Shown: in pieces, positions 6,251 to 60,475 of the stretch
Layout: every line of letters starts with the position of its first letter
Numbering within the stretch: position 1 is the first letter of the stretch
From: a bacterium
GTDB lineage: Bacteria; UBA8248
NCBI GenBank assembly: GCA_965213685.1
Contig: CBDBZY010000064.1
Coordinates: forward strand, 32,001-96,000
Direction of reading: 5' to 3'
Length of the DNA stretch: 64,000 nt
Program-made: the position numbers and the translations under genes
Notes under the pieces: model-generated
Databases searched by the model: none
What the model was told of the DNA's origin: nothing
What the model saw: only the letters and a program-made list of their open reading frames with translations

Positions 6251-6471
6251 GGATTCAAAAACGTGTGTGACAAGTCCACTGACTGAGGACTGAGCACACC
6301 AGCGTCAGCCGTTGGACGGGAAGAACACTATAGCTAACACAGTGCAACTATCAGAAAACTCTAATCTATGTCTATTCCTCACTCACGATGTTTCTGTCAT
6401 ATTCTCTCTTCAAGAGAGGAGGTTACTGCCGTACAGTCAGTCAGGAACGTGTTTATACACAGCACGGTTGT

Positions 6472-7050
6472 TACTAAAACCCAGGACGGGACAGGGTGAA
6501 TCCGAGACATCCCGTCCCGTCCATACGTGTATGATAGCCACGCTGGCGGCAGTTAGGCACTCCTGGCACGTATCTACTATGGACTCTACAAGTGCTTCGG
6601 CAGGACATGTAGCTACTACGGACTCTACAAGTGCTTCGTCGCATCATACCTTTACACTGTATCCTTGCAAATTTCACAGTTCATGACAAGACTGTGTTAA
6701 TATTACTTTCACAAAAACAACAAAACCTCTTGTGAAGACCTACACAAGATGCATGAAACCGTTCCATACAAGTGTCACAAGTGTCACATTCAATCATGGC
6801 ATTGCCATTGTCTGGGAGTCGGTATGAAAAGTATCCCTGTGATTGCTTTAAGAAAAATCTGTTTCTTCCATCTTTCGCTATTGATCGACTATTATAGTAT
6901 AACACTTTTCCCAGATTCGTAAAAGCGTGCGGCAGATATCGATCTCGGTTTATTGGTCCCGGATTTTGAGTAGGCGGCCGAATCCGGGAAAAGTGTTATA
7001 CTATAATAGTCGATCAATGGAAGAAACGTAAAGCAATCTCTCCGCAATCA
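6472..7050 (-). mobile_element. Short TIR element with PHD-finger remnant (rearranged copy)
   Basis: Starts TACTAAAACCCAGGACG; MIECDTC..ERFHASCVGL...FCCFCES on the minus strand. Confidence 0.65.
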
Positions 7051-7130
7051 GCTGTAGAAGCACCTACAGATGGTGCTTCATTACTTCAATCACCTGACGC
7101 CCACACATAGATGAACATGATGATTACTGG

Positions 7131-7790
7131 CTGCTCCCCCCACCTGTGTCAGCAGAGAAATTCTTACCATACTATCTCCAGGTGAACTAAGACTTCCTAA
7201 TAATATCAGAACAGTAAATCCTCCCATCCTGGCTCCTTCCTGATGGGGACGTGTTCCAGTCGACATACTTAAAGGGGTTCTGACGGCACAAGATTTGAGG
7301 GTCTGCCAGTGTGAGGTTGGCAGATTTGCCAATGACCACTGGTTGTACTTAGGAAAGAATGGACTCCCAGTCTCTGGGTCCAGGCTCGGTGCCCAAACAG
7401 AAGTTATTCTTTCCTTTCTTTCCTTCTTCACCTGTGTCAGCAGAGTAATTCGTACCATACCATCTCCAGGTGAACTAAGACTTCCAAATATTATCTGGAC
7501 AGTAAATCCTCTCATCTCGGCTCCTCCCCTGATAGGGAGGCGTTCCGGTTGTCCCCTAAAGGGGTTCTGACAGCACAAGATTTGGGGGGTCTGCCAGTGT
7601 GATGCTGGCAGATTCGACAATGACCACTAGTAGTACTTAGGAAAGAATAGGGAGATAAACTTTTGTCCTGGGTAATGGCCTGGTGCTTAGTGTACTGGAC
7701 TCCCAGTCTCTGGGTCCAGGTTTGGTGCTCGGACAGAAGTTTACCTTTCCTTTCTTTCCTTCATCAACTGTGTCAGCAAATTCTTAGACT
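7131..7790. repeat. About 290-330-bp tandem repeat (roughly 2.3 units); related 1.3 units at 18977-19395
   Basis: CACCTGTGTCAGCAGAG...CCAGGTGAACTAAGACTTCC recurs at 7141, 7429 and partly 7764. Confidence 0.85.
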
Positions 7791-8251
7791 ATGGCTATTC
7801 AGCCACGTATCATTCTCTCAACCCCTGGCACTGAACAGATGTGAAGAATATTTGTGTGAAATTCTTACAAGTTATGCATATGAGTCATAGAGTAGATGAC
7901 AATTCTTTGGTCTAGTTACGACCTCCCATTATGGGTCATTTACCCATCACATATCAAACTCCTGCCATAGCACACACTCTAGTTACTCTGGAGACGGATA
8001 TCCTATACCTAGTACCTTGTGCACATGCACCCCATCTCAAGAGTATACTCAGTGTGGGAGTGACGTGGCATCACTCAGCTGCAACTGAGATATACATCCA
8101 TACCAAGGTTAAAACTAACCATCTCTCCTATCATGCCAAGGGAGAGCTACGTATCATATGCATATGCAGTAGGTGGTATGTTCAACACTGAACATTTGAA
8201 TAATAAGTACCTCACATCAAAGTATACAATCAATGCATAAAGGCACAATAT

Positions 8252-9910
8252 CTAAAACCTTCTATGACAGTTACATTTACTATCAACCACCTTTGATGGC
8301 CTTCTATCATGTATGGATATGCAACCTATGTCTGTAGCACTTTTGTTTACCGACAGAAGAAAGTCTTTTAGCTCTTGTTTCAACACTGGTACAAGGTCAG
8401 TGTGCTGGTCAGATATATCAGTTGTTTCTTTAGGATCAGCTACCACATCGTAAAGATTGACACTCTGTATGTTTCCTTTATTGTACTTAACAACAAGTTT
8501 TTGTGAGTCTCGTAATACTGCACCATAGAAAGATGAGTTTAAATCTCCCTTTTTAATGTGAAAGGCAAAAGCAATTGAACTATTGCGATGATTGACATCT
8601 CCCTTGAGAAATGGCAGAATAGAGACACCATCTATTGGTCAATCTTGAGGAGGATCAATGCCAAGGATATCACACACAGTCGGTAGCAGGTCATTTGTCA
8701 CCACAGGATAATCAGACTTTCGATTGGCTTTAATCACTGCTGGCCATTCTAATATTGCAGGGACTCGAATACCACCTTCAAACACTGTCCCTTTCTCTCC
8801 TCTCAAACCAGCTGTAGAGCCTGGAGTGCCTTTCTGTGGGCCATTGTCACTTGAGAACCACACAAATGTGTTGTTCTTAATGCCATATGTTTCCAGTAAA
8901 CCTCTGACTCTCCCTATTGCTTGGTCCAGTTGCGATATAGCTCCATAGTAATGGGTAACATCTCTTGAGTAACCTTGTTTTCTGTACATAGTGTAGTAGG
9001 GATCAAGAGCATAGTACACACGATGCACGTCATGAAATGCAAGTATAACAAAAAAGAGCTTTTCACTAGAATGCAATTTTTGAAGATATTTCTCAAACAT
9101 GTCCACAATAAAATCTGAATCTCCAATTATGGAGTTGTGGTAGGCTTGCAATTTTTCTGACTCCTTATCCATGTAGTGATAATCTCTGCAGGTTTTGTGT
9201 TGGTACCATCTCTTCTCAACAGTACAACTGAAGCGTTCAGAGCATTGGCAGTTTGGTGCCACTGAGGATGTGTCTCTTTCAGTTACTAACCACAGGTCAA
9301 AACCATGCATGCCAGGATGGGACACAGGCCACTTCTTGTTACCCCCTTCAATAACTTTCAAATCACCAACATGCCATTTCCCAAATATGGCAGTTTTGTA
9401 GCCTTCATTCTTTAGAAGTTCAGGCAGTGTTACTTCAGAGGTAGGTAGGGGCATAGAACAGGGGCATTCGCCATCATTACATGGAACACCCAGATCCGCG
9501 TGCCAGATACAGTACCGATTGTGGTTACGTCCTGTCAACAGAGTGCCTCTGGTTGGTGAGCAAACAGGACCTCCCAAATAAAACCTCGTTAGGAGGACAC
9601 TGTTTGGTCCTCGGGCCATTTGGTTGAGATTTGGTGTCTTAGCTTTTCCTCCATTATACTCCACGTCACCATAGCCCAGGTCATCAGCTAATAAGTACAG
9701 AATATTTGGATGTTGCAATGGATTCTTGTGTCTGTTAGGTAGTGAAAAATTGTCCTCAAGAAAGTTAGGAAACCTATATTGTTTCTTCTTTACTCTTCTC
9801 CTAAAAGTAATGCCATTGACATCTCCTAGTGCGCTGTACAACACAATTACTAAGATACCCACCACAACTGTCGCTAGTACTATTGCCACTCTGAAATCTC
9901 CCACTTTCAT
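8252..9910 (-). pseudogene. S1 sulfatase paralog 1 with one in-frame nonsense codon
   Basis: 553 codons from MKVGDF; ADDLG, CSPTR, GKWH and SDNG motifs; Arg CGA of the paralogs is TGA at 8639-8641 and the frame continues to the normal stop. Confidence 0.9.
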
Positions 9911-10197
9911 AGTTTGGTGAGGAGACACACTTGCAGCTGTAGTACAGAAGGAGAGAACAGTAGTAGGAAGTGATCTCTCTACATAAGCAGGGTACATATA
10001 CACAAACATGGCCTTGCTGTGGGCCGTGTATAAACACAAGACATACAGGGTACCAACATAATGTCCCTTTTTAACTTGAGCCATTCACATACGCAAATAC
10101 AGCCTGCTATGGGCTGTGTACAAGCACGGGACATGCAATTCTATGCTAATCTTAAAGTGGTGGGCTACCGTTATGCGCTTGATATCTAATTTAAAGT

Positions 10198-10410
10198 ATG
10201 AAAAACATTTTCCAAAAATGTAGAGGAATGTAGGTATGGCAGTGCCAAAAATCACAGAAAATAGGTATAGGGATGGCGGTGTGCAGGCAAGACAGGGCAC
10301 ACAAAGATTACACAAGTAACACCATCCCTATATCTTTTTTCTTCACCATGCACCAGTGTTGTTCGCAGTAATCTCATAGTGTAACCTGCATAAGGATAAC
10401 ATGGAAAAAA
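10198..10410. mobile_element. Truncated hairpin-ended HINE-like element (one arm plus loop; copy G)
   Basis: AAGTATGAAAAACATTTTCCAAAAATGTAG...CCATCCCTA arm followed by the CAGTAATCTC loop. Confidence 0.8.
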
Positions 10411-11499
10411 TCACGCTTTCTGTACATGAGCAGCCGTCTCCGAACACCTTTATCAAGGTCTTCTTCAAGGTCTTCTTGCCGAGGGGTTCTACCAGCCAAG
10501 GAGTGATACCAGCCTGGAAGCACACATGAACCCTTACACTTTACGCCAGTGCGTGACTAGTGATATACCAGTGGAGGAGAGAACGGAAACACTTATACTT
10601 AAAGTCAGTGCGAGCCCACGTACACGTACTGCACGAGGCTATTTACTGCGTATATGTACCTCTAGTACTCTTATATACTACAAATGTTTCATGACAGCTG
10701 TTTTGGGCCATGCTGTGGCCACACAATAAGGAAAGGTTGTAATTGTGTAGTAAGTGGGAGGGAATTATGGAGAGGCATACATGTACATGTAGATGTGCAA
10801 CTCCCATAACAAAGGTCTTTGTTAAAACAGGAGTCCATAAGCGCTGCAAAGCGATACTAATAGAATTGTTGTTTTAACCAGGAGCCCATTGGCGTCGCTT
10901 CACGGCGCTTATGGGCTCCTGGTTAAAACAACAATTCTATTATTGCAGTGCATGCATTGACTTCCACTTTAATGCAATAAGTATGTTTATCTCAGTTGCA
11001 CATTTGTTCTCTTAACACCTGGTACTGAACTGATGGTGTAAAGAATGTGCAAAATGTGTAGGTAGGATATCCTTCTAGAAGTTAAGGGCATTTAGTGATA
11101 GTGTCCTTTAGTCCACTAAGCTTGACATAGCAGTAAGCACACATTATGGGTTGTTTACCCATCACAAGTTCCAGTCACAATACAATACATACATATACTC
11201 GAGAGATACTCTACACATTGCACCAATGCATTCACGCAGTCTCATACTGGAGAAATACACACTGGAGAAGTAAGACTCAGTGCAGGAGTGGCAGGATGTC
11301 ATTCAGCTGCAACTGAGATGACCATCAAAATCATCATGGTTCTTTTGCTATGTATACATGTAGCCTTTCTAAGGGCTGTGTATATATAAGCATGGACATA
11401 CATACAAACATAGCCTTACTGTGGTTTTTCCTGTGTCAGTACCAGCTTAGTTTAAGAAAAGGGCAGTCTCTAGTGTATGTTCCAGGTGAGTGCTGTTCA

Positions 11500-13212
11500 G
11501 GAGCTGCGATTGAGCTAATCCCTCCAGGCTGCAAGGTAATAGCCTTAGGTGACTTCAATGCTGATTTGGGTGCCTTGGGAGGCCCCATGTCGTGTTCCAC
11601 CAAATGAACAGGGATCCATCTCCTCATCATACTAAATGCCTGGGACTTTGCCTCTTCACATTTGCACCTCAGCCCTACTAATTCTACATACACGTATGAA
11701 AGTGAAGCACACTCCTCCTTTTCAACCATTGACCACATCATTTGTCCCCGATACATACTTTCTAACTTCTGCTCCTCAAAGGTGCTTGATGACCATCCAC
11801 TAAATACCTCAAACCATCTACCAGTAACTGCAGAGTTTCTATGCTCTCTTTTTACTCCTACTTCTTCCACAACACAGGCCACACAGCAGCCAGTTCCTAA
11901 CTGGAATAAATGCTCAAAAGATGAAATTCGGCAGCTGTACACTGAACCATTACAATCTAGCCCTGCTGATCTCTTCCATCAGTTTCTTTCACAAGCAAAT
12001 GTCCTCTTACAGCCATACCTGTTAGATGATATTCTCCATTCTTTTGGAAAATGTTTGTGAACTAGTGCCATGAACATTCCACAGAAACAATTCCGTAAGC
12101 ATAAGGTTCCCAAGTGGAATCATCGCCTAAAGGAAGCACAACAGAAGAGTAAGCTCCTGTATAAGGAATGGGTATCTGCTGGTCGCCCTTGGTCTGTGAA
12201 TCATCCTGCTCGTGTGGCATATAAAGCAGCAAAGAAAGAGTTTAGAGCATGCCTCCGTCAGCATAGGAGAGATCTTAACACGGAATTTTATGAATCCTTA
12301 GATGAACAATGCTCTGACCCACAACGACTATTCCAATCTATAAGGAACTACACTAATCCTGCTAGTGCAACTTCTACTCCTTCAAAACTTATTGTTAATG
12401 GCTCTCTCTTTCAAGGGGACTCTATACTGGATGGTTGGGCTAACTACTTTGTGTCTCTCAGCATTCCACATGACACATATTTCACTCCAACTCAGCTAGA
12501 TCTTGTCTATGAATATCAATCCATCTGTTCCACTGCCAGTGGGTGCTCTGATGTGTTTGTCCTGGATGAAGTGACTGATGCAATTTGCTCCCTTTCGCGT
12601 CGTAAAGCAGCTGGACCTGATGGAATAGAGAATGAACATCTCATCTTTGGTGGTTCAATGGTTCCTGTTTGCCTTACCACTATATTTAACTCTATCCTCC
12701 TTTCTGGATATATCCCAGAGTGCTTCAGGTATGCCTATGTAATACCAATCCTGAAAAGCCATAATAATGATCCTGCAATTCCTTCAAACTATAGAGGAAT
12801 TTCTCTCCTGTCTGCAATTAGCAAAGTGTTTGAGAAGCTTCTACTCTCTCACCTTCACCAGCTAGCCCATTCACTTAACCCACTTCAAGAAGGTTTTCGT
12901 GTGGGATACAGCTGTCTGCATACGGCCTTTGTTCTACAAGAGGCTATTGCTTCTCGATGGAAGAAGAGTAAGAAAGTTTACATTGCTTTTCTTGATGCTA
13001 AAAAGGCCTTTGATACAGTGTGGCATATTGGCCTCATGGTGAAACTTCGCCGAATAAATATTCCCTCATATATCTGGCATCTACTGAATAACTGGTACAG
13101 CAGCTCATCAGCATCAGTGCGATGGAATAACAACAATTCAAGACCATTTCCTATCAAGCAAGGTGTGAGGCAAGGAGCTATTCTCTCCCTGTGTATGTTA
13201 ACAATCTTCTAA
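11500..13212 (+). pseudogene. Non-LTR retrotransposon (RTEX-like) ORF2 fragment, APE endonuclease end plus RT
   Basis: LGDFNA, TIDHI, SNHLPV, KAAGPDG, NYRGISLL, FLDAKKAFDTVWH, GVRQG; in-frame stops; truncated at both ends. Confidence 0.9.
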
Positions 13213-13483
13213 ACTATCAATCATCACTTCCATCTCCATCTGTTTTCTGGAATCTATCACTAGTGCTATATGGCTTATCATTAAGAGACAGGCCAACAGT
13301 TTCCAGCTTTTCATAGTATCTCTTCCTGGACTGGTAGTCCAATGGGTTGACATAACCATTACTCATGGTACTGCCACTGACAAGGCGATACACTAGCACT
13401 AGCCGACTAGCACTCCATGCACTCTTTGCCAACCACCAGGTTTTGTGCACAGTTTTAAGCCATTGCAGTGGAACCTCCCTATA

Positions 13484-15683
13484 CACTGCAAAAACTACAT
13501 AGTTAGTTTAACGTACATAAAACTGAATTTAACAATAACTGAATTTAACATACATAAATGCAGTTAATTTAACAATAACTGAATTTAACATACATAAGTG
13601 CAGTTAAACTAAGGCTACATTTGGTAAAATAACCTAGGGTAGTTGTAATAACTATTATCATGTGATTACAACCCTAATAAAGTTGTATTAACTATATGAA
13701 TATTAAAGTAACCAAACTTGGTTAAATTACATTCATCCATGGAGATAAAATTAAGTACTTCAGCACTGAAATTAACCATTTTGCACAACAATTCTTGAAA
13801 CACACTACATCTGATCACACACATTATCTACAGTTCCAGATGGTGCTTTAGTGTTACATAGAGATATTCAGGGATGAAAGAAAGACTCCAAGAGTGAAAG
13901 ACAAAAGGGTCTCTTAGTGATGTCACAGGGAGAACTGACTGAAAGATGTGACGTAGTGATTGAAACCCACCGGGGGTGGCACAAATTTCTTCACTAACAC
14001 CATGTTTTGTTAGGTGTTGGGTGTCAATAGCTTTTTTCTTGTTCAAATTTAACTTGAGTTCGACTTGAATGCAAGTATTGATGACAGTCTCGCAGTTGGA
14101 GTCTACGCATCAGTGCTTGTAGCCGCAAACACTGTGCATGCGCACTAAGTTTCAGCCAGCATGTGAACAGCTGCGTTCAAAGGGATCTCGTGAATGCTGC
14201 AGCTGCTTGGTGCACCTTTGGCAGATGGCTGAATTTACTCTTCCTCATGAAGATTCGTCGCCAGAAGATGTTGCCAGTTGGCTGCAGGAGTAACGGAATA
14301 CCTGAGGAATACTGTACAGCTTTTAGTGGTAAGCTTTCTGTCCCTTTTTAGGGAGCCGGCAGAGGTGCGCCTGGGTAGCGGAGTAGCGGAGGCGGGTGTT
14401 CGCCCGGCAGCTCTTGCCCCCCTAGACTTGTCTTCATGACCACCCCGCGCACGCATGAGCAGGAGGGGTAAATTCACTACTAAATTGATTGGTTGGTTTT
14501 TCATCTTTCCTTAGATATATGTCCGACATATGCTGGAGCTTTTTCTCCGCACTCAAGGGCCAGCAGTGGTGAGTGTTTTTTTCCCAAACCATACACAGTT
14601 ACATAATTGTATGGGATACAACTAAGTGTTAGCTTCTTCATATTGTGAAAGGTATATTTACCAGTATACCTGATATACCTTACCATGGACATTAGGTTGA
14701 GCAGGACATGGAGCTGTTCATGCAGCAGAAAGGTATTGTTCAAAACACTGCAAATACCTTGGAGAGAAACTTGGATGCCAGCTGTGTTAGAATTGGAGAG
14801 AAGTTCCTCCATTCAGACACTCCTGGAGAAGTACAAGAGTGACGAGACAGGTATATACTTATAGCTGAACATGTTGCCATCTTTTTCTCTGTGATGACTT
14901 CCATGGGCATCTTTCTCATCTGCTTTCTACATTTCTTACAGATAATGACAAAGACGTTCTTCATGCTGTGAAGGTTCTGGTGGCACTTTACTTAGCTAAG
15001 GCCGAAAAAAACTTGGACACTTTGATCCATCTATATGAGAAATATGAGGTATAGGATAAAAATAGCATGGTCTTTCATCTAGACCAAGATATTTACTTTT
15101 ACAGATGTTTACTATATACAATGGAGGAGGCAGCAACAAAGGAGCCACAGCGAACCTCTCCCTGTATTGCAGCCTTCAATAGGGACAATGCCAAGCAGTA
15201 TTTCTCCTTCATGTCTTCTGTGAGGCACCTAACCTCTCAGCAACACTTATTTTGTGGTTTTATAATTATATATAGTTTGGTATCTTTTGTTGTACGTGCT
15301 GATAACCTGTTACCACAGTTTTTGAAATATAATATTATCTAATCTGTCCTTGGGTTGGAATAACCTATGGTGACCTTGTATGTATCACAACCATAGAAGT
15401 TGTGTTAATAACATCAAAGATTAAAGAAAGCCTGCAGCAAAGTTAAAACAACCACAATAGCATGGTTACAGTAGTGTTTACTATAACTCTGCTTTATGGT
15501 AAATGTCACTTTGCATATATAGTTAAATTAACTTTTCAGCCATATTAAACTAACAAGAAACAATGAAGTTAAGTATTAACCACAAAATATTCAGTTAAAT
15601 TAACTCTGCAGGTGGGTTGTTCCAGTTGCATGCACTTTCATACAAAATATTGGGTGAAATTAACCAAGCAGTTTTTTGCAGTG
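13484..15683. mobile_element. CACTG (EnSpm/CMC-type) non-autonomous DNA transposon
   Basis: TA|CACTGCAAAAACT...AGTTTTTTGCAGTG|TA; subterminal GTTAAATTAAC-like repeats at both ends; decayed internal coding remnants. Confidence 0.85.
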
Positions 15684-15899
15684 TAGTTGGTCCATACTCT
15701 CCTTGAAGGGGTCAGTACAACCAGACCTGCTAGGAAGATAAACTACAATAATAAACAGTGGGCCATCACTGTAATCCAACTTAATGCCAATCATTCATGA
15801 GGAAAGTATGTGGGGCACAGCAGAAATGAGAGAGTCAAGGTTTCTACACTACCCTATGGCAACTCCACTATGTCCTCTTACAAGGTGGGGGATACAATA

Positions 15900-16358
15900 G
15901 ATATTGTAGCCCGTTAGCGTGGGCGTTCAAAGGTGCCGCCAGGGCAATATATCTCATACACGCTCTTTGTCATGTGAACACAGGGAAATATCGATATTTC
16001 CCTGTAGCCACGTGACAAGGGTGCACCGTGTACAGCTCGACAGCAAATACACGCAAAGGTAACGGTCGGGGTACAGGACAGTTATACCATGATAGTCAAG
16101 GCTGTTAGCGGGCTAAAAGCTTGACATACCATGGTAGCTCACGTACAGTTCGACGGCAATCACACGATCAGAGGTAGAATTGAGCTACACAGGATAGCTA
16201 TACCGTGGTAGCCTAAGCTGCTACCGGGCTAGCTAGAGCATGCCTACGGCGGGCTTTATCTGAAACGGTAATATTCCTTAACCCCTCAGGCTTCGCCCTC
16301 GGGGTTAATGAATATTACCACGTGTATTTCTGATAAAGCCCTGGTAGGCATGCTCTAT
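15900..16358. mobile_element. Crypton-like non-autonomous palindromic element
   Basis: About 125-nt hairpin at 16234-16358 with a GGCTTCGCCCTC loop; palindrome ACAGGGAAATATCGATATTTCCCTGT near 15980. Family assignment from recall. Confidence 0.5.
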
Positions 16359-16660
16359 CCGTAACTTATCTTCAATTTCAGGAGAAGCCATTGCCAAAAA
16401 TTTCAAATTCATATCCAGATCAAATATTGACTTTAGATTATAATTATGCAGCCAGTGTTCAGATAAAGCAATTATGTCAATGTCTGGACTCCAACAAGGA
16501 GGGTGGTGTTGTTCAGACACATGCTAACTATGTAGTTGAAATCATTTTTTCATCATAAGCACTGTAAACCACTCCTCACTGTCATCCATAGCCGTTGCAA
16601 TGAATATAAATATTAACGGTGAAAATTATTGATTACAACACATAAAATACAACTATGTCA

Positions 16661-17184
16661 CAGTGGCGTAGCCAGGGGGGGGCTTAGGGGGCTCGAGCAC
16701 CCCCCTTACTGACTTCAGTCAGACCTAGAGTAGCGGGGAAAGCCTAGCTGTGCTAGACTATTCCTGCTTTCGATGAACTTATTACCTGTGTATGCTAGAG
16801 CATTAGTTACATGCCTTGCAAGAATTGTTAGCGTCAGTTACAGTTACTATAGTGCAAAGTTCAACATAATATACAAGCTGCCCTGTAGTCAGGCTGTATT
16901 TTTCTGGTGGGAGGAGCAAGGGAAAAAATATGGCTGGCTCGCAAGACAAAGCTGCCCTGTTGGTGTACATCGCACACGAAGGAGAGCCTAGGGACGAGGG
17001 GGACGAGGCTACCTTATCCCCAGGCCATTTGCTCGTGCTATCTTTAACCCCTGGCTCAGGATAGCGTCGTCCTCAGGCCCTCCGCTGGAGCAAATTTACG
17101 CACGACCTCTGACCCCCCGTGGACCTATGACGTAATGTGAAGACGTAACTGAGCCCCCTCACAAAAATCCTGGCTACGCCACTG
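16661..17184. mobile_element. hAT-type MITE with 5-bp TSD
   Basis: 16-bp perfect TIR CAGTGGCGTAGCCAGG; TGTCA on both sides. Confidence 0.85.
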
Positions 17185-17324
17185 TGTCATGTATATGTCA
17201 TGGCCAACTTGAATTTTTCTGCATACGACAACGCAGCAGCTAACAACCATCATGCCGCTGACACTTCGCGCCACTCTTTTGCCAACCAGGTGCGCGTTAA
17301 TTTGGAATTTAGCGCCCAGTGTAT

Positions 17325-18104
17325 TAGTCTCGTGAACCAGACCGCATTCCGTGAACGCGCATGTGCGAGCGAAAGGGGGAGGGGAAGAAGGGAAAATACG
17401 GTCTGGCCAAACTCGCCAGGTTTTCGAGGCCACGACAAGATCTTGTCGTGACCAATCAGATTTCAGATCTGCATTGATTGGCGCTATGCGCGTTCCGCGA
17501 AAACCTCAAAGCATGCACATCTTAGTGTGGCATATAATTATGTATGCAAGTGTCTGAGGTGGTAGAGAAGTCTCCATGGCTCGCTATCGAGCTACGAGAC
17601 TACCAGTATCTAGTCTAGCCCTAGTCTAGCCATAGCCGTTCCTCAGCCATATGATCGTATGCTGTAGTCCCTAGCCTAGCCCTTACCCTATTACAAGATG
17701 GAGCCGCAAACTCGGGGACACAGTTTTCTAGGCTTGTTCATCCAGCGCAAAACATGGGAGAATCGTCAGTTGTTAGACGTCGTCATGCTACGTGTACTTC
17801 GGAAAGTTCACCATACTATGCCACCCAACCAACTAATCGTGTCTCCGCTTTCGGCGGCAGTGACATTAGCTGTAGGTCTATCCACGTTTGTGTGTGCCGA
17901 AAAGAACAGACTAGAGCAACAGATAGAGCTGCTGTAGCCAGTGTATGGCGGAGTCTTCCTGGAGTCATGGTTCCTTGAGGTTGCTTATGTATAGTGTTAA
18001 GTTCCTATTGCCAATTATTCACAGGTGACAACATTCCAAGCGGAAACGAAAACCTGGCGAGTTTGGCCAGACCGTATTTTCCGACGGTCTGGTTCACGAG
18101 ACTA
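17325..18104. mobile_element. AcademH-type non-autonomous DNA transposon
   Basis: TIR TAGTCTCGTGAACCAGACCG, a 33-bp subterminal IR (near 17394 and 18047) and 9-bp TSD CCAGTGTAT. Confidence 0.85.
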
Positions 18105-18403
18105 CCAGTGTATGTTGTCGGCACACGCACGAGGTAAGTTTGCTGACATTGATGGATGAAACTCTAACACCCTGCGTAGAGCAAGGGGGAGCTGAATTCA
18201 AAAACGTGCGTGACAAGTCCACTGACTGAGGATTGAGCACACCATGCAGCGTCAGCCGTTGGACGGGAACAACACTACATCAGAAAACTCTAGTCATGAT
18301 GTCTATTTCTCACTCACGATGTTTCTGTCTTTAAGAGAGGAGGTTACCGCCGTGCAGCCAGTCAGGAAAGGTGCGACACGTCGCCAAACAACAGCACGGT
18401 TGT

Positions 18404-18901
18404 TACTAAAACCCAGGACGGGACGGGATGAATCCGGGACATCCCGGCGTCCCGTCCCGCCTACTCAAAATCCGGGACCAATAAACCGAGATCGATATCC
18501 GCCGCGCGCTTTTACGAATCCGGGAAAAGTGTTATACTATAATAGTCGATCAATGGCGAAAGATAATTTTCGTAAAGCAATCTCTCCGCAATCACAGGGG
18601 TAAGCTTACTTTTCATACCGACTCCCAGACAATGGCAACGCCATGATTGAATGTGACACTTGTATGGAATGGTTTCGTGCATCTTGTGTAGGTCTTCGCA
18701 AGAGGCACACTGTGGTTTTGTCGTTTTTGTGAAAGTAATATTTACATAGTCTTGTCATGAACCGTGAAATTTGCAAGGATAGGCCTATATAAGGTGTAAA
18801 GGTATGATGCGATGAAGCACTTGTAGTAGCCACGTGTCCTGCCGAAGCACGCGCCTCGGTACGCGTGAAAAGCTTAGCATAATACGTCCTGGGTTTTAGT
18901 A
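18404..18901 (+). mobile_element. Short TIR element with PHD-finger remnant
   Basis: TIRs TACTAAAACCCAGGACG / CGTCCTGGGTTTTAGTA; MIECDTCMEWFRASCVGL...WFCRFCES at about 18643-18736. Confidence 0.75.
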
Positions 18902-19689
18902 GCACAATATGCTCAAACTTCCGGTTCACCAAAATGGCTGCGTAATCAGGATCTGAGTGCGTTGTGAACTTATCGCTGGGTCCAGGCTCGGTGCCCGAAC
19001 AGAAGTTATTTTTTCCTTTCTTTCCTTCTTCACCTGTGTCAGCAGAGTAATTCATACCATACCATCTCCAGGTGAACTAAGACTTCCAAATGTTATCTGG
19101 ACAGTAAATCCTCCCATCTCGGCTCCTCCCCTGATAGGGAGGCGTTCCGATTGTCCCCTAAAGTGGTTCTGACAGCACAAGATTTGGGGGGTCTGCCAGT
19201 GTGATGCTGGCAGATTCGACAATGACCACTAGTAGTACTTAGGAAAGAATGGGGAGATAAACTTTTGTCCTGGGTAATGGCCTGGTGCTTAGTGTACTGG
19301 ACTCCCAGTCTCTGGGTCCAGGTTTGGTGCTCGGACAGAAGTTTATCTTTCCTTTCTTTCCTTCACCAGCTGTGTCAGCAGAGTAATTCTTAGACTATGG
19401 CTATTCAGCCACGTATCGTTCTCTCAACCCCTGGCACTGAACAGATGTAAAGAAAATTTGTGTAAAACTCTTACAAATTATGCATATGAGTCATAGAGTA
19501 GATGACAATTCTTTGGTCTAGTTACGACCTCCCATTATGGGTTATTTACCCATCACATATCAAGCTCCTGCCATAGCACACACTCTAGTTACTCTGGAGA
19601 CATCCTACACCTTGTGCACATGCATCCCATCTCAAGAGTATATTGCAGAGTGGGAGTGACATGGCATCATTCAGCTGCAACTGAGATAT

Positions 19690-20907
<1,218 letters not shown>

Positions 20908-21050
20908 TACCACGGTTAAAACTAACCATCCCTCCTATCATGTTAAGGGAGAGCTATATGTATGATATGCATATGCAGCAGGCGGTATGGACATTTGAAT
21001 AATAAGTACCTCACATCAAAGTATACAATCAATGCATAAAGGCACAATAT

Positions 21051-22751
21051 CTAAAACTTTCTATGACAGTTACATTTACTATCAACCACCTTTGATGGCC
21101 TTCTATCATGTATGGATATGCAACCTATGTCTGTAGCACTTTTGTTTACCGACTGAAGAAAGTCTTTTAGCTCTTGTTTCAACACTGGTACAAGGTCAGT
21201 GTGCTGGTCAGATATATCAGTTGTTTCTTTAGGATTAGCTACCACATCGTAAAGATTGACACTCTGTATGTTTCCTTTATTGTACTTAACAACAAGTTTT
21301 TGTGAATCGCGTAATACTGCACCATAGAAAGATGAGTTTAAATCTCCCTTTTTAATGTGAAAGGCAAATGCAATTGAGCTATTGCGATGATTGACATCTC
21401 TTTTGAGAAATGGCAGGATAGAGACACCATCTATTGGTCGATCTTGAGGAGGATCAATGTCAAGGATATCACACACAGTCGGTAGCAGGTCATTTGTCAC
21501 CACAGGATAATTGGACTTTTGATTGGCTTTAATCACTGCTGGCCATTCTAATATTGCAGGTACTCGAATACCACCTTCAAACACTGTCCCTTTCTCTCCT
21601 CTCAAACCAGCTGTAGAGCCTGGAGTGCCTTTCTGTGGGCCATTGTCACTTGAGAACCACACAAATGTGTTGTTCTTAATGCCATATGTTTCCAGTAAAC
21701 CTCTGACTCTCCCTATTGCTTGGTCCAGTTGTGATATAGCTCCATAGTAATGGGTAACATCTCCTGAGTAACCTTGTTTTCTGTACATAGTGTAGTAGGG
21801 ATCAAGAGCATAGTACACACGATGCACGTCATGAAATGCAAGTATGACAAAAAATGGCTTTTCACTAGAATGCGATTCTTGAAGATATTTCTCAAACATG
21901 TCCAAAATAAAATCTGAATCTCCAATTATGGAGTCGTGGTAGGCTTGCAATTTATCTGACTTTTTATCCATGTAGTGATAGTCTTTGCAGGCGTCTTGTC
22001 CATAGAATCTCTTCTGAACAGTGCAACTGAAGTGTTTTGAGCATTGGCAGTTTGGTGCCACAGAGGATGTGTATCTTAGAGTTACTAACCACTGGTCAAA
22101 ACCATGCATGCCAGGATGGGACACAGGCCACTTCTTGTTACCCCCTTCAATAACTTTCAAATCACCAACATGCCATTTCCCAAATATGGCAGTTTTGTAG
22201 CCTTCGTTCTTCAGAAGTTCAGGTAGTGTTACTTCAGAGGTAGGTAGGGGCATAGAACAGGGGCATTTGCCATCATTACATGGATTACCCAGATCTGCGT
22301 GCCAGATACAGTATCGATTGTGGTTACGTCCTGTCAACAGAGTGCCTCTGGTTGGTGAGCAAACAGGACCTCCCAAATAAAACCTCGTTAGGAGGACACT
22401 GTTTGGTCCTCGGGCCATTTGGTTGAGATTTGGTGTCTTAGCCTTTCCTCCATTATACTCCACGTCACCATAGCCCAGGTCATCAGCTAATAAGTACAGA
22501 ATATTTGGGTGGTGCAATGAATTCTTGTGTCTGTTAAGTTGTGAATTTTTGTCCTCTATAGGAAATCTAAATTGTTTTTTTACATTAGCTGATGTCATAC
22601 TTGTGTTTGAAATCTTGTCTTCCTTACTGTCTACTCTTTTCATTGAAGTAACACCATTGACATCTCCTAGTGCACTGTACAACACAGATACTAAGATACT
22701 CATCACCATTGCCGCTACTACTATTGCCACTCTGAAATCTCCCACTTTCAT
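21051..22751 (-). CDS. S1 arylsulfatase-family protein, paralog 2 (566 aa, N-terminal membrane anchor)
   Basis: Intact single-exon CDS; LADDLGYGD, CSPTRGTLLTG, GKWH, SDNG, GEKGTVFEGGIRVP; hydrophobic segment right after MKVGDFR. Confidence 0.93.
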   Translation of the reverse strand: MKVGDFRVAIVVAAMVMSILVSVLYSALGDVNGVTSMKRVDSKEDKISNTSMTSANVKKQFRFPIEDKNSQLNRHKNSLHHPNILYLLADDLGYGDVEYNGGKAKTPNLNQMARGPNSVLLTRFYLGGPVCSPTRGTLLTGRNHNRYCIWHADLGNPCNDGKCPCSMPLPTSEVTLPELLKNEGYKTAIFGKWHVGDLKVIEGGNKKWPVSHPGMHGFDQWLVTLRYTSSVAPNCQCSKHFSCTVQKRFYGQDACKDYHYMDKKSDKLQAYHDSIIGDSDFILDMFEKYLQESHSSEKPFFVILAFHDVHRVYYALDPYYTMYRKQGYSGDVTHYYGAISQLDQAIGRVRGLLETYGIKNNTFVWFSSDNGPQKGTPGSTAGLRGEKGTVFEGGIRVPAILEWPAVIKANQKSNYPVVTNDLLPTVCDILDIDPPQDRPIDGVSILPFLKRDVNHRNSSIAFAFHIKKGDLNSSFYGAVLRDSQKLVVKYNKGNIQSVNLYDVVANPKETTDISDQHTDLVPVLKQELKDFLQSVNKSATDIGCISIHDRRPSKVVDSKCNCHRKF

Positions 22752-23604
22752 AGTTTGGTGAGGAGACACACCTGCAGCTGTAGTACAGAAGGAAGGAACA
22801 ATGGTAGGAAGTGATCTCTCTACATAAGCAGGGTACATATACACAAACACAGCCTTGGTGTGGGCCGTGTATAAGCACAAGACATACATGCCCCCTGCAA
22901 AAATTCCATGGTTATTTTAACCATGGTTTTCTCAGTTGCATGGTTTGCTCAGTTGTATGTATATACTGATAATCATCAGTATTACTGAAACTGAAAGGGT
23001 TAACAAATAAACGTAATGTCTCTCATATGCACTACTAGGAGTTAGTTCTAGTGCACCAAACTCATTGTTAATGGCACTGTACTTTTTCAGTTACTGTGCA
23101 TTATATTGTAGCATCATAGTGTACAGGAAGAGAGAGATAATCATCAGTATCACAAGAAGTAAAGTGGTTAACGAAAATATTTATGCACTAGCCACCAATG
23201 CCATGTACCTGCATGTGCAATATCATGATTAATGGTACTACGGTTTTTGAGTTTTGTTTCTTCAACCGGAAGGAGAAGAAGAAGAAGAAGAAGAAGAAGA
23301 AGAAGATGGACAATTTGTGAAATGCAATTTTGCATATAAAACACACCTTATATAGCATTTTCCCACAATTTTTAAGGTACAGTTAACATTTTGCATGCTC
23401 TTAACTTGGATACCACTAGAAGTCAGATTGCTGCCATAGTGAAAGTGAAAATTGCAAATTTCAAATGTACAGGTTTGATGCTGAGGACCCTGGCCAATTC
23501 CTATATACACCTACTACTGTAGGTGTGATTATAGCTAAGAGCTTCCTGCGCACAGAGAATGCAGTAGAAGTACTTACATGGGTATGCTTGACAAACTGAA
23601 TTAT

Positions 23605-24862
<1,258 letters not shown>

Positions 24863-24887
24863 TAGCTATGTGTATATACATATATGT

Positions 24888-26080
24888 ACAAGTATGGAAA
24901 ACATTTTCCAAAAATGTAGAGGGATGTAGGGATGGCAGTGCCGAAAACGGCGGAAACTAGGTGTAGAGATGGCAGTGTACAGGAAAGACAGGTTATAAAA
25001 AGACTACACAAGCAACCCCATCCCTACATCTTTCTTTTTACTTGAAATTGTTCTGTGAGTTTAGCTATGAAAATTCTGGGAACATCAATGCCATGTGGTG
25101 AGAAAAAGAAAGATGTAGGGATGGGGTTGCTTGTGTAGTCTTTTTATAACCTGTCTTTCCTGTACACTGCCATCTCTACACCTAGTTTCTGCCGTTTTGG
25201 CACTGCCATCCCTACATCCCTCTACATTTTTGGAAAATGTTTTTCATACTTGTTTGTGTACTTTTTCTTGTATAATAGTACACAAAATATTATTGCAAGT
25301 TTCATCCAACAAACATATAGGTGATCAGAGCAGCCATTGCTACTAGTCAGCGGCGGAGATACGGGTGGGCCTTAAACCTCATGATCAGTCACTTACGAAG
25401 TTGGGAGGCTGAGCCCCTCTAAAAAGTCCTGAGCTAGAGTAGTTTCCTCAGTGTATCTGACTAGCTAACTCATACCAGTTACATTGAAGTTCGTTGTACA
25501 ATTGTACGGCGAAGTAAGAACGCGCTGTTTTCAGTGACAAAAGATCGAGTAGCCTTTGCTATGTCAAGCCATCGAGAAATTAATAGGCGTGGCTTCGCGA
25601 GGCCCCCCTCACATGCTTACAATTTGCGCCACGTGACAATAATTATTAGAAAATGGCTTCCAAATATGGCAAAGTTGTCTGGGGCTCTAGATTCTGCCCA
25701 TAGTAGAGAAGATACTAACATTTTGTTAGCGCAGATCATACTTCGTAGTGATTACAGTGGATCTGTGAAAGAACTATGGTGATTACTTCAGCCAGTTTTG
25801 AGTAAAGTCGTTTGAAAGATATCTCGTAAGAAGAAGAAGAAGAAGAAGAATAAGAAAGAAAAACAAAATTACCTTTCGTCCATTATCTGGCAGTAAGTCA
25901 AGGAATGCATTCTAACTACTTGTGGGGTATCGTTGGGTAGAGAATCGGTTGAATAGGCCATTCGCGTGCCGAGAAAGGCTTAAAACGCGAGTGTTCGAGA
26001 GCTAAGAAGGCTTTCCAATGTACGCGCACTATGGGAGTGTCGGCGCCATCCCTACATAGAGAGTCTGCCGACTCTCTGAT
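24888..26080 (+). mobile_element. Hairpin-ended HINE/Helentron-like element, copy C
   Basis: Long IR 24888-25253, (GAA)n tract, 3' subTIR plus stem-loop; close relative of 62877-64000. Confidence 0.9.
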
Positions 26081-26169
26081 ACATGTATGTAGACAAACTC
26101 TAGCAAACACTGCCGGAACATCATGCTTTCTTGCAGGACTCTTATACAAAGGCTCTACACTTCATTCAG

Positions 26170-26340
26170 AGCTATATACGTGCTGCAGCTCACATATAAG
26201 TGACTGTTTGTATACCAGCCTCTAGAATGGTAGTGCTAGTGTTCCGCTCATGTGACATCTCAAATGCCTGTTGAGTGGAACGGTTCTAGACGCTGGTATA
26301 CAAAGTCACTTGTATGTACGCTGTAGCACGTATATAGCTC
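26170..26340. mobile_element. Small foldback/MITE
   Basis: GAGCTATATACGTGCT...AGCACGTATATAGCTC; arms pair over most of the 170 nt. Confidence 0.7.
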
Positions 26341-26661
26341 AATGAGCTATAGACATGTATGATGTTCAGTGTTCAGTGTACATCAGGAGTGGTAAGTGCA
26401 ACATTGCAAAGAAATCAGTGACAAAACCAGCCTTTGCTAGGTTCCCAGGTCTGTATGGGGAAATTCTAAGTTGGTCCAGGTGGGATCCCCTTAGCACTCC
26501 ACAACTTGTAATAAGGGCTCTCTGCTCTGCCATGCCAGTTACTTACATACATGTACATGTGGCAGTGCATTACACAATAAGTCATGTGAATGCATACTGG
26601 TGATAGTGGGCAACATAAATCAGAATTTACTGTACTGTAAAAATGATGTATAGTGCAGGCT

Positions 26662-28365
26662 TTAGATTGAACTTCCAGGACAACCACATTTACCACTAAA
26701 CATCTCTGATGGCCTTCTATCATGTGTGGATATGCAACCTATGTCTGTAGCACTTTTGTTTACTGACTGAAGAAAGTCTTGTAGCTCTTGTTTCAACACT
26801 GGTACAAGGTCAGTGTGCTGGTCAGATATATCAGTTGTTTCTTTAGGATCGGCTACCACATCATAAAGATTGACACTCTGTATGTTTCCTTTATTGTACT
26901 CAACAACAAGTTTTTGTGAGTCTCGTAATACTGCACCATAGAAAGATGAGTTTAAATCTCCCTTTTTAATGTGAAAGGCAAAAGCAATTGAACTATTGCG
27001 ATGATTGACATCTCCTTTGAGAAATGGTAGGATAGAAACACCGTCTATTGGTCGATCTTGAGGAGGATCAATGCCAAGGATATCACACACAGTTGGTAGC
27101 AGGTCATTTGTCACCACAGGATAATTGGACTTTCGATTGGCTTTAATCACTGCTGGCCATTCTAATATTGCAGGGACTCGAATACCACCTTCAAACACTG
27201 TCCCTTTCTCTCCTCTCAAACCAGCTGTAGAGCCTGGAGTGCCTTTCTGTGGGCCATTGTCACTTGAGAACCACACAAATGTGTTGTTCTTAATGCCATA
27301 TGTTTCCAGTAAACCTCTGACTCTCCCTATTGCTTGGTCCAGTTGCGATATAGCTCCATAGTAATGGGTAACATCTTCTGAGTAACCTTGTTTTCTGTAC
27401 ATAGTGTAGTAGGGATCAAGAGCATAGTACACACGATGCACGTCATGAAATGCAAGTACGACAAAAATAGGCTTTTCATCAAATTGTGATTTTTGGAGGA
27501 ATTTCTCAAACCTATCCACAATGAAATCTGAATCTCCAGCTATGAAGTCATTGTAGGCCTGCAATGTTTTTGACTCCATATCCATGTAGTGATAATCTCT
27601 GCAGGTTTTGTGTTGGTACCATCTCTTCTCAACAGTGCAATTAAAGTGTTCAGAGCATCGGCAGTTTGGTGCCACTGAGGATGTGTCTCTTTCAGTTACT
27701 AACCACTGGTCAAAACCATGCATGCCAGGATGGGACACAGGCCACTTCTTGTTACCCCCTTCAATAACTTTCAAATCACCAACATGCCATTTCCCAAATA
27801 TGGCAGTTTTGTAGCCTTCGTTCTTCAGAAGTTCAGGCAGTGTTACTTCAGAGGTAGGTAGGGGCATAGAACAGGGGCATTCGCCATCATTACATGGAAC
27901 ACCCAGATCTGCGTGCCAGATACAGTACCGATTGTGGTTACGTCCTGTCAACAGAGTGCCTCTGGTTGGTGAGCAAACGGGACCTCCTGAATAAAACCTC
28001 GTTAGGAGGACACTGTTTGGTCCTCGGGCCATTTGGTTGAGATTTGGTGTCTTAGCCTTTCCTCCATTATACTCCACGTCACCATAGCCCAGGTCATCAG
28101 CCAATAAGTACAGAATATTTGGATGTTGCAATGGATTCTTGTGTCTGTTAAGTTGTGAATTTTTGTCCTCTATAGGAAATCTAAATTGTTTCTCCACATT
28201 AGCTGATGTCATACTTGTGTTTGAAATCTTGTCTTCCTTACTGTCTACTCTTTTCATTGAAGTAATGCCATTGACATCTCCTAGTGTGCTGTACAACACA
28301 GATACTAAGATACTCACCACCACTGCCGCTACTACTATTGCCACTCTGAAATCACCCACTTTCAT
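26662..28365 (-). CDS. S1 arylsulfatase-family protein, paralog 3 (567 aa, N-terminal membrane anchor)
   Basis: Intact single-exon CDS with all sulfatase motifs; distinct C-terminal tail EMFSGKCGCPGSSI. Confidence 0.93.
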   Translation of the reverse strand: MKVGDFRVAIVVAAVVVSILVSVLYSTLGDVNGITSMKRVDSKEDKISNTSMTSANVEKQFRFPIEDKNSQLNRHKNPLQHPNILYLLADDLGYGDVEYNGGKAKTPNLNQMARGPNSVLLTRFYSGGPVCSPTRGTLLTGRNHNRYCIWHADLGVPCNDGECPCSMPLPTSEVTLPELLKNEGYKTAIFGKWHVGDLKVIEGGNKKWPVSHPGMHGFDQWLVTERDTSSVAPNCRCSEHFNCTVEKRWYQHKTCRDYHYMDMESKTLQAYNDFIAGDSDFIVDRFEKFLQKSQFDEKPIFVVLAFHDVHRVYYALDPYYTMYRKQGYSEDVTHYYGAISQLDQAIGRVRGLLETYGIKNNTFVWFSSDNGPQKGTPGSTAGLRGEKGTVFEGGIRVPAILEWPAVIKANRKSNYPVVTNDLLPTVCDILGIDPPQDRPIDGVSILPFLKGDVNHRNSSIAFAFHIKKGDLNSSFYGAVLRDSQKLVVEYNKGNIQSVNLYDVVADPKETTDISDQHTDLVPVLKQELQDFLQSVNKSATDIGCISTHDRRPSEMFSGKCGCPGSSI

Positions 28366-29237
28366 AGTTTGGTGAGGAGACACACCTGCAGCTGTAGTAC
28401 AGAAGGAAGGAACAATGGTAGAAAGTGATCTCTCTACATAAGCAGGGTACATATACACGAACACAGCCTTGCTGTGGGCCATGTATAAGCACAAGACATA
28501 CACGCCCACTGCAAAAATTCCATGGTTATTTTAACCATGGTTTTCTCAGTTGCACATTTGTTCAACAGTGGACACTGTGCAAATATGCAGGAAATTCATC
28601 TTAAGAAGTGTGGGAGGATTGAGAAACTAAATGACAGGTTTTAGTTCATTAAGCATGACATACAATGTACATGTAACTGTAAGCATCCATTATGGACTGT
28701 AGCTACAGTGTCATGGCCAGGCCTTGCAAGAGCTCAGTATGTAGAACAGCTACACTTAGTGAGACTAGAAGACTTTGATAATACTTACAGCAAGTCAGAT
28801 TAGCTTTGTGGCCTGCTGTCGAGCGTGTCCAATTTTGGGTGTATACAGTACTTCATTAAGTCTGTACACACATACACACAGCTAATAGCACGAAAGCAAC
28901 TAGATGCTTTGAACTTTTTAAAAAGCATTATACACAGTGTGTTCATATCTTTGACTATTAAACGGTCACTGCAAATGCGAGTACTCTTGGTTTAGTCTAT
29001 TTCATTTTTGCATGGACTCTATTTGCCTTACATTTTCACTACATTTCACGTCTGTAGTTATTCTGATGTCATATTCTTTGGGTTGAAGTTGTCACCACAC
29101 TAGTAGTGGTATGTTGTTCAACTTCATTTTAATTGAGTTGTGAGAAATCATATTATATGTTTGACAAAATACCACAGTTTTTGGATAAGTAGTATGTTGT
29201 GCTGCAAGTTGTGTGCTGATCATTGAACTAAATTCTA

Positions 29238-29911
29238 GAAACATGTTTGAAAGATGTAGGGACGGCTGTGCCAAAAACCACAGAAACTAGGTGTAGGGAT
29301 GGCAGTATGCAGGCAAGACATGTTATACAAAGACTACACAAGTAACCCCATCCCTACATCATTTTTTATACCTGATATGATTTTGCTGGCTATGCATGCC
29401 ATTAGGTATTGAGAACAACAGTTTGAAGCAAAAAATGTAGGGATGGGGTTACTTGTGTAGTCTTTGTATAACATGTCTTGCCTGCACATCCCTACACCTA
29501 GTTTCTGTGGTTTTTGGCACAGCCTCCCTACATCTTTCAACATTAAAAAATGTTTTTAATACTTGTTTGTATCCTTTTTCCTGGTAATAGTTCACTAAAA
29601 TGTATTCTGTTCTTGCAAGCTTCTTTCAGAATCCCTCGAACAAATCATAACAGCCACTGCTACCCATTAGGAACAGAGTAGAAAGGGGCTTAACCGGAAG
29701 GAGCTTGACCACCATCACGCCATTTTGAAGTTGGGGGGCTGAGCCCCTCCACAAAGTCCTGAGCTAGAGTGACTACTTCACTACATGTATCTAACTGGCT
29801 AACTCATACCCGCTACATTAACGTTTTTGTACAATAGAAAGACGCTGCTCAAACCTCTCTCGAATCAGCGACAACGCCAGCCTAAAATTAATAGGCGTGG
29901 CTTCGCGAGGC
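29238..29911 (+). mobile_element. Hairpin-ended HINE-like element, copy D (3' truncated, diverged)
   Basis: Long IR about 29238-29569 and body homologous to copy A up to TAATAGGCGTGGCTTCG. Confidence 0.8.
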
Positions 29912-30509: not shown

Positions 30510-30660
30510 AACAGCCTCAAGACTTAGAAAAATAGCTCAGAGCAATTTAACACACCACAGCCTCTAGGCTTAGAAAATAACTTTGACATACAGTAGCCTC
30601 TAAGCTTAGAAAAATCTAAATTGGAAAACAACTAGAACAGCCTCAAGGCTTAGAAAAATA
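30510..30660 (+). repeat. Four ACAGCCTCAAGGCTTAGAAAAATA-like repeats with variable spacers
   Basis: Direct inspection; same motif family as 1340-1485. Confidence 0.8.
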
Positions 30661-52444: not shown

Positions 52445-56060
<3,616 letters not shown>

Positions 56061-60445: not shown

Positions 60446-60475
60446 AATATGATTATGGTACGAGATATTGGCAGT

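Follow-up and report, generated by a model that had tools for sequence, protein, structure and literature searches.

The window analysed here is a 64,000-nucleotide stretch of a 71-contig assembly (positions 32001-96000 of contig C64), and it carries three copies of a gene for a family S1 sulfatase, an enzyme type that depends on formylglycine. We are confident that these genes belong to an old, pan-sponge sulfatase family that is shared with protists. A fuller account describes them as a recently duplicated S1 cluster of a cysteine-rich subfamily, which came from marine glycan-degrading bacteria, entered the sponge stem via a protist and acts on sulfated glycans; this has about an even chance of being right, and is rated lower because the protist route is its least certain part. 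The enzyme family is already known, as is a single-exon Amphimedon sulfatase proposed as a case of horizontal gene transfer (HGT), and it is the distribution of the subfamily that is unusual. As a candidate transfer into the sponge stem, the gene history bears on the extent of gene gain by HGT in early animals.

A sulfatase clade of sponges and protists

The translated product matches PF00884 (Sulfatase) at 173.3 bits against a cut-off of 25 and also matches SGSH_C; all NCBIfam matches are far below cut-off. Residues D90, D91, C131, R135, K192, H194, H310, D369, N370, and K387 are invariant in 26/26 rows of an alignment of sponge-type, protist, and bacterial-type proteins, and D90, D91, K192, H194, H310, D369, N370, and K387 (DD, GKWH, His, DN, and Lys) correspond to metal-binding or catalytic positions of S1 structures. 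The S1 signature, given in the accessible text of Barbeyron 2016 (PMC5066984) as C/S-x-P-x-R followed by LTGR, is present as C131-S-P-T-R135 ... T140 G141 R142 and is invariant in the same alignment. On these residues, the window proteins are assigned to the S1 (formylglycine) sulfatases with a complete catalytic set.

The first homolog search listed at least 120 proteins of 46-91% identity, mostly full-length open reading frames (ORFs) on long contigs. Over all searches, the named sponge members (Geodia barretti, Halichondria panicea, Dysidea avara, Sycon ciliatum, and Oscarella pearsei) represent three classes of sponges. Next in similarity comes a set of cysteine-rich proteins, among which those of Nonionella stella, Acanthoeca spectabilis, Ploeotia vitrea, and Rhynchopus euleeides are named; a profile search with one protist subclade listed at least 120 more proteins, including 15 from EukProt. 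No named eumetazoan row is present among the at least 360 matches listed in three homolog searches, in which most rows are without a species name. The nearest named prokaryotes are mainly Planctomycetota and Verrucomicrobiota, and also Acidobacteriota, Bacteroidota, and Kiritimatiellota, which bears out the affinity to Planctomycetes and Verrucomicrobia enzymes that an earlier, sequence-only reading of this DNA had read from the motif style. In the metagenome scan, one of 79 loci (L081, Halichondria-like) falls in the family and the rest are 30-42% identical. A scan of viral contigs gave only two weak loci (one of 27% identity, the other a 40-residue piece) and no viral carrier, and a first GTDB scan with the window protein returned 0 matches, its search patterns being too specific.

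Trees were built from 73 hand-picked rows out of about 550 proteins and 81 loci (LG+G4), from 45 of these rows under the PMSF mixture model, and from 235 domains with FastTree. Sponge-type and protist-type proteins form a single clade in all three (100/95, 100/100, and 0.995, respectively), and its stem has 0.56 changes per site under PMSF. The protist members are choanoflagellate, euglenozoan, and foraminiferan. The same union is seen in individual residues, since the cysteines at positions 148, 235, 237, 243, 255, and 544 are shared by sponge rows (22-23 of 23) and protist-type rows (18-19 of 19), against 0-2 of 28 bacterial rows, and one asparagine also unites sponges and protists against bacteria. 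Both PMSF and FastTree pair the eukaryote clade with the near bacteria (90/99 under PMSF) and place it within a wider set of bacterial proteins.

Within this clade, the sponge proteins are supported at 97/88 (LG+G4) and 99/96 (PMSF). The PMSF tree separates Sycon and Oscarella from two long-branch proteins (P0195 and P0201) together with the demosponges, with Dysidea basal among the latter. The two long-branch proteins are sister to the demosponges (96/82), which we take to be the place expected of glass sponges. This branching is the accepted order of sponge classes, and because the gene tree follows the class relationships, the gene likely dates to the sponge ancestor. The claim that a bacterial gene was domesticated in this particular lineage is not supported, as the family spans three sponge classes, forms one clade with protists and has six cysteines that are absent from bacteria.

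Copies, predicted anchor and 5' end on a host contig

The contig that holds the window is a sponge-type host contig, rich in repeats, that was binned with a bacterium. Most contigs of the assembly have about 65% GC, and the bacterial ones have an ORF cover of 96-98%. C64, on the other hand, is 1.64 Mb long with 44% GC, a CpG observed/expected ratio of 0.46, an ORF cover of 26%, and 192 AC microsatellites; its base composition, repeats, and reverse-transcriptase fragments therefore mark it as host DNA inside a bacterial bin. A total of 22 contigs fall below 56% GC and make up 4.9 Mb of the 8.0 Mb assembly, and all eight that were profiled are eukaryote-like (CpG-depleted, microsatellite-rich, and ORF-poor). 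The bin is nevertheless scored 94.19% complete and 3.68% contaminated despite its low-GC, largely host-type DNA, and taken as scored it would assign nine or ten sulfatases of the host to a bacterium. The sulfatase coding sequences fit the host contig in composition (43% GC, 37.5% at third codon positions) and sit within its eukaryotic repeats, and four further runs from one study contain parts of both gene and flanks, with sequence variants. The window sulfatases are thus integrated in host DNA and are not a contaminant. Their proteins branch among demosponge proteins, beside Geodia, which points to a demosponge as the probable host.

The sequence-only reading described three intronless coding sequences with a CSPTR motif in a tandem array. 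Three uninterrupted minus-strand frames, each with CSPTR and an N-terminal hydrophobic stretch, are present (Table 1), but copy 1 is not intact, its frame meeting a TGA at codon 424. The same stop is found in the duplicate of copy 1 at C64:133451, and the lesion is therefore real and inherited, not a sequencing error. The array is real as well, although it is not head-to-tail, with about 11 kb and about 4 kb of mostly repeat DNA between the copies. It reaches well beyond the window, with ten near-full copies at about 9-227 kb of C64 (about 215 kb), of which seven are intact and three broken, plus two decayed fragments. Many copies sit in blocks of up to 12 kb that are duplicated at 95-98% identity, in keeping with the earlier suggestion of an expanding family. 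Pairwise dN/dS is 0.17-0.58 in 36/36 pairs of the nine alignable copies, with dS up to 0.12, and most pairs combine a dS of 0.03-0.12 with different flanks. The array is a young birth-and-death cluster under purifying selection; in itself it represents ordinary duplication, with the chemistry and fold of a well-known enzyme family. Other sponge contigs are also multi-copy, for example one of 645 kb with seven of 13 cluster members.

Differences between paralogs concentrate in residues 232-312, a region that is variable across the whole family. Within residues 220-312 lie 43 of 80 non-synonymous and 19 of 50 synonymous alleles (ratio 0.53), and positive selection in this loop is not supported (Fisher p=0.10, for a region chosen after inspection of the data). 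Which copy is the nearest neighbour changes from one part of the gene to another, a pattern that fits homogenisation of the rest by gene conversion.

In copy 3, hydropathy shows a single N-terminal hydrophobic peak at residues 6-28. This N-terminus is predicted to be a type II anchor or, alternatively, a cleaved signal peptide, since the segment behind the hydrophobic stretch could be a signal-peptidase site, which counts against the anchor. Among the 120 top homologs, a hydrophobic segment with a stem of at least 40 residues occurs in 37/50 proteins of the window's motif-defined subclade versus 16/70 others. Short signal peptides are found instead in the named members from Sycon, Oscarella, Dysidea, Halichondria, and the protists, and linkers in the named basal sponge and protist proteins are 2-21 residues long. 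Because the named relatives outside the window subclade carry such short signal peptides, the predicted anchor-plus-stem is read as a derived demosponge feature, in agreement with the earlier proposal of a gained anchor. Ancestral members would then have been secreted or lysosomal digestive enzymes with a short signal peptide, and the demosponge lineage of the window would have gained the longer anchor and stem, holding the enzyme in the Golgi or plasma membrane.

Upstream of each ATG, the sequence-only reading had noted an acceptor-like site and proposed an intron in the 5' untranslated region (5'UTR). The site, a polypyrimidine tract with ...TACAG 26 nt before the ATG, was confirmed in all three window copies and is found in 10/10 copies on C64, which count as one observation because the copies share ancestry. 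Only 0.2% of 218,470 AG sites on C64 are equally strong, and at a slightly looser threshold 81 of 5,000 random ATGs have a comparable site within 50 nt. In the four further runs, which are contigs of unrecorded type, the matches listed have no junction at this acceptor, a result without bearing on splicing. The candidate donor is weak; it sits at the start of the homology common to the copies (about -137), and as the hexamer GTATGT occurs at 0.66 per kb on C64 the match may be due to chance. An upstream in-frame coding extension was considered and rejected, as a stop lies 22 codons upstream in three of ten copies and a frameshift in two others. In the metagenomic locus L081, a 141-nt phase-1 GT-AG intron separates an exon for the signal peptide from a single uninterrupted catalytic exon, and the encoded N-terminus agrees with the Halichondria RefSeq protein. 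By analogy, this supports a general layout of a 5' intron followed by a single catalytic exon.

Uninterrupted domains are not confined to sulfatases in this host, as 11 of 27 kinase-domain matches in the assembly span most of the domain in one frame. Missing introns are therefore weak evidence and not diagnostic. Uninterrupted protein-kinase domains lie at C41:348580-569403 and C7:154009-162448; four on C41 are near-identical in length, which suggests that the C41 kinases are another expanded intron-poor family.

Origin of the subfamily

The subfamily likely descends from marine glycan-degrading bacteria and likely entered the sponge stem from a protist. The entry into sponges would be a eukaryote-to-eukaryote transfer from engulfed protists, and this is the least certain step of the proposal. 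Acanthoeca, a choanoflagellate, groups with the diplonemid Rhynchopus, and this grouping would fit transfer among protists. No protist lineage stands out as the donor, because the sponge clade is not nested in any one of them. A more elaborate version, in which the gene passed from bacteria through phagotrophic protists to the last common sponge ancestor, is absent from other animals, and was rebuilt in one demosponge lineage as a membrane-anchored family that modifies sulfated glycans of the sponge itself, at its cell surface or in its matrix, with paralogs differing mainly in residues 232-312 and thereby in specificity, is unlikely as a whole.

Several observations weigh against a transfer through protists. 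LG+G4 places the eukaryote clade as sister to both bacterial groups and not nested among them, and the sponge clade is sister to protists (82/87, PMSF) or in a polytomy (LG+G4), nested in no single protist lineage. Absence from other animals would follow only from the missing named eumetazoan rows among the matches listed. Most protist-type rows are without a species name and may include a true choanoflagellate ortholog, for example P0346. No canonical animal sulfatase is among the tree rows.

The strongest competitor, which we regard as a real though lesser possibility, is vertical inheritance. In this view the S1 subfamily would be an ancient eukaryotic one with hidden paralogy, which sponges and scattered protists retained while other animals lost it. 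It would account for the single eukaryotic clade on its long stem and for a sponge clade that branches deeply without nesting in a protist group. Choanoflagellates possess the subfamily, so that few animal losses are required, and the accessible text of Barbeyron 2016 (PMC5066984) attributes patchy eukaryotic S1 sulfatases to loss after early acquisition. The named choanoflagellate copies cannot be sponge orthologs, however, as a clade of sponges with Acanthoeca is rejected (approximately unbiased (AU) test, p=4e-5), and the named protists depart from the species tree. Genomic contigs from across the sponge clade, moreover, encode the catalytic part in a single open frame. An animal gene of great age and vertical descent would not usually look like this, yet the host has other uninterrupted domains.

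Direct transfer from a bacterium of Planctomycetota or Verrucomicrobiota type to the stem lineage of sponges, separate from the origin of the protist copies, is unlikely; it is the idea of the sequence-only reading, set back to the sponge ancestor. The nearest named prokaryotes belong to these phyla, and the Atlas structure neighbours of the Geodia member are bacterial clusters, most often Verrucomicrobiota and Planctomycetota. In addition, an arginine column is common to 20/23 sponge rows and 10/16 near bacteria and occurs in 0/19 protist-type rows, and a looser constraint, with sponges and near bacteria on one side and the named protists and far outgroup on the other, is not rejected (AU p=0.127), a result that also tells against the protist route. 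On the contrary, the six cysteines and the asparagine tie sponges to protists, and the eukaryote-type proteins are monophyletic in every tree. The AU test rejects the stricter constraint, which joins sponges to the near bacteria and protists to the next bacterial clade (p=2.4e-4), and a foraminiferan protein matches the window protein at 306 bits, above the best single-domain bacterial-type match at 279 bits. Direct bacterium-to-animal HGT calls for animal sequences that group with bacteria to the exclusion of other eukaryotes, and this pattern was not found.

Retrocopy expansion of a canonical animal arylsulfatase (ARSB, STS, or GALNS type) is very improbable. It draws on the single coding exon, on database names such as steryl-sulfatase-like and GALNS-like, and on language-model feature neighbours, which are animal ARSB/ARSJ clusters at 0.93-0.96; bacterial clusters score nearly the same (0.93-0.94). 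With the query and program that gave 306 and 279 bits, the structure-solved GALNS, STS, ARSB, and ARSA chains, which we take to be human, reach only 152.5, 151.5, 135.3, and 112.5 bits. Canonical animal arylsulfatases are thus not closer than bacterial subfamilies, and the family profile gives the same order. The copies have spread in blocks with flanking DNA, not as processed inserts. The outcome that the sequence-only reading had set against itself, a retrocopy nested in a pan-metazoan sulfatase clade, is not what these scores indicate.

An assembly artefact or contamination, that is, bacterial genes or haplotypes joined into a false array, is the least credible explanation of all: the contig does sit in a bacterial bin and some copy pairs are 98% identical over kilobases, which is in the range of allelic divergence, but the host-like GC, the eukaryotic repeats around the genes, the dS of 0.03-0.12 with different flanks, the gene pieces and flanks in the four other runs, and the many copies on other sponge contigs speak against it.

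According to the part of Conaco 2016 (PMC4784904) that was accessible, Amphimedon queenslandica has a single-exon PF00884 gene of 1,527 bp (Aqu1.227479), which is an HGT candidate on the Alien Index alone; homologs are listed from Haliclona amboinensis and Ephydatia muelleri, adult versus larval counts are 5213 versus 21, and the source is treated there as prokaryotic. The family of the window genes illustrates how Alien-Index screens can label a gene as bacterial although its nearest relatives are protist. A sulfatase is among the HGT-candidate domains of Salpingoeca in the sections available from Matriano 2021 (PMC7971027). The main text of Stam 2022 (PMC9825549), as far as accessible, has no mention of sponges. 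The HGT sulfatases of tunicates (PMC13390645) were considered as relatives and set aside, since by the accessible description they belong to the unrelated family S3. The literature search revealed no publication that describes this clade, although its assignment to a subfamily may already stand in SulfAtlas member lists or in supplements.

Predicted function, other features and known systems

The protein would enter the endoplasmic reticulum, where a host formylglycine-generating enzyme (FGE, SUMF1) would convert Cys131 of the CxPxR motif to formylglycine and the six subfamily cysteines may form disulfides. The mature enzyme would hydrolyse sulfate esters with a divalent metal. The eukaryote-only cysteines and the sequons would fit a lumenal or extracellular enzyme. 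Matches to FGE in the assembly lie only on high-GC bacterial contigs, the host DNA present being 4.9 Mb.

The substrate guess comes from gene neighbourhoods of the bacterial relatives, where 69 of 119 ORFs from 22 of 24 near-bacterial loci were scanned. Further sulfatases occur in 12 of the 22 loci, glycoside-hydrolase domains in five (alpha-L-fucosidase in two), and SusC/SusD-type genes in two, and sulfated glycans are therefore the best guess; on the other side, ten of the 22 loci have no neighbouring sulfatase. By analogy, the predicted activity of the window enzymes is desulfation of sulfated glycans, either within the secretory pathway or on the cell surface. Two further ideas, that PF14885 is linked to fucanases and that the family belongs to S1_23, were not confirmed by the literature search and were not used. 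The predicted switch from a secreted to an anchored enzyme offers a testable handle on sulfated-glycan turnover in sponges. Several sulfatases are up-regulated in adult Amphimedon, for which the accessible text of Conaco 2012 (PMC3447736) suggests matrix remodelling and digestion. A search for SRCR domains gave 0 matches, as did its control. On the host-type contig C51, five sulfotransferase-domain (PF00685) matches lie in long open frames at 427291-437834, a second intron-poor array related to sulfation.

The coordinates of the window features are collected in Table 1. Two ORFs on the minus strand have motifs that we take to be of the hAT transposase type; Pfam gave no match for the ORF at 45964-47460. 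An Rfam scan of the window gave 0 matches. Over the whole of C64, ARAGORN reports 62 genes that resemble tRNAs, and the anticodon is CTA in at least 11 of them; they are probably tRNA-derived repeats or pseudogenes.

Table 1. Features of the window, in window positions unless marked C64.
Feature	Position	Strand	Remarks
Copy 1, pseudogene-like S1 sulfatase, 552 codons	8252-9910	-	CSPTR 9548-9562; premature TGA at codon 424 (8639-8641)
Copy 2, intact 566-aa S1 sulfatase, single coding exon	21051-22751	-	CSPTR 22347-22361
Copy 3 (P0001), intact 567-aa S1 sulfatase	26662-28365	-	CSPTR 27961-27975; Pfam Sulfatase 82-432, SGSH_C 387-530; six N-glycosylation sequons
N-terminal hydrophobic stretch of copy 3, about residues 8-25, with a 57-residue stem behind it	28291-28344	-	predicted type II anchor
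Candidate splice acceptor, copy 3	28392-28425	-	26 nt before ATG; polypyrimidine tract, YAG, no other AG in preceding 28 nt
Candidate splice acceptor, copy 2	22778-22811	-	same site type as copy 3
Candidate splice acceptor, copy 1	9937-9970	-	same site type as copy 3
Weak candidate donor GTATGT, copy 3	28496-28501	-	predicted 5'UTR intron of 110 nt; counterparts at 22882-22887 and 10041-10046
Copy 1 block	1587-16784		duplicated at C64:125127-140202, 96-98% identity
Copy 3 block	26079-38104		recurs in pieces at C64:159486-170187 and elsewhere, 96-98% identity
Dispersed repeats upstream of copy 2	22965-26097		nothing but repeats between about -202 and -3346 relative to the ATG
LINE-type reverse transcriptase and endonuclease fragments	12070-13212, 35572-37483, 48849-50328, 52662-54552		
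MITE-like very high-copy non-coding elements	19545-20894, 23582-26097, 28999-29912, 60458-62283		internal inverted repeats; 70-97 matches elsewhere on C64 alone
Inverted repeat, 736 bp	41333-42068 and 44124-44859		99.7% identity; internal 292-bp direct repeats
Two ORFs, hAT-type transposase-like	45093-47460	-	no Pfam match for 45964-47460

Sponge proteins: P0032 (Geodia), XP_064390216.1 (Halichondria), XP_065178317.1 (Sycon), P0378 and P0401 (Dysidea), and EP00118_P025379 (Oscarella) share the clade, the six cysteines, and the catalytic set with the window proteins. The Geodia barretti protein is 57% identical and likewise has an anchor and stem. The Halichondria-like locus L081 has a separate exon for the signal peptide, whereas the window genes encode the predicted anchor within the large exon. 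The labels steryl-sulfatase(-like) and N-acetylgalactosamine-6-sulfatase-like carried by sponge entries are automatic best-hit names, as true STS and GALNS score far lower. The Amphimedon gene Aqu1.227479 is likewise a single-exon sulfatase, and its membership of the clade is plausible, the likeness being drawn from its accessible published description and not from its sequence.

Protist S1 sulfatases: The proteins of Nonionella, Acanthoeca, Rhynchopus, and Ploeotia are in the same clade, have the common cysteines, and carry signal peptides where the N-terminus is complete. They differ in being about 37-40% identical, in lacking an anchor-plus-stem, and, in several cases, in having C-terminal additions or long inserts.

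Bacterial S1 sulfatases: Uncharacterised proteins from the five phyla named above, for example those of Aporhodopirellula rubra (L015), Zobellia uliginosa (L017), and Pontiella sulfatireligans (L078), have the same CSPTR-type motif and C-terminal domain, form the PMSF sister group, and belong to loci rich in sulfatases and glycosidases. In contrast to the window proteins, they are without the six cysteines, at about 35-40% identity. Most bacterial-type S1 subfamilies have no known substrate according to the accessible text of Barbeyron 2016 (PMC5066984).

Structure-solved S1 enzymes: The S1_16 and S1_19 carrageenan sulfatases, bacterial GalNAc-6-sulfatases, GALNS, STS, and ARSB have the same fold family and formylglycine chemistry as the window proteins. 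The best profile scores are 195-256 bits, with bacterial enzymes first. None of them is a close relative, and substrate specificity is therefore not transferable from these enzymes to the sponge subfamily.

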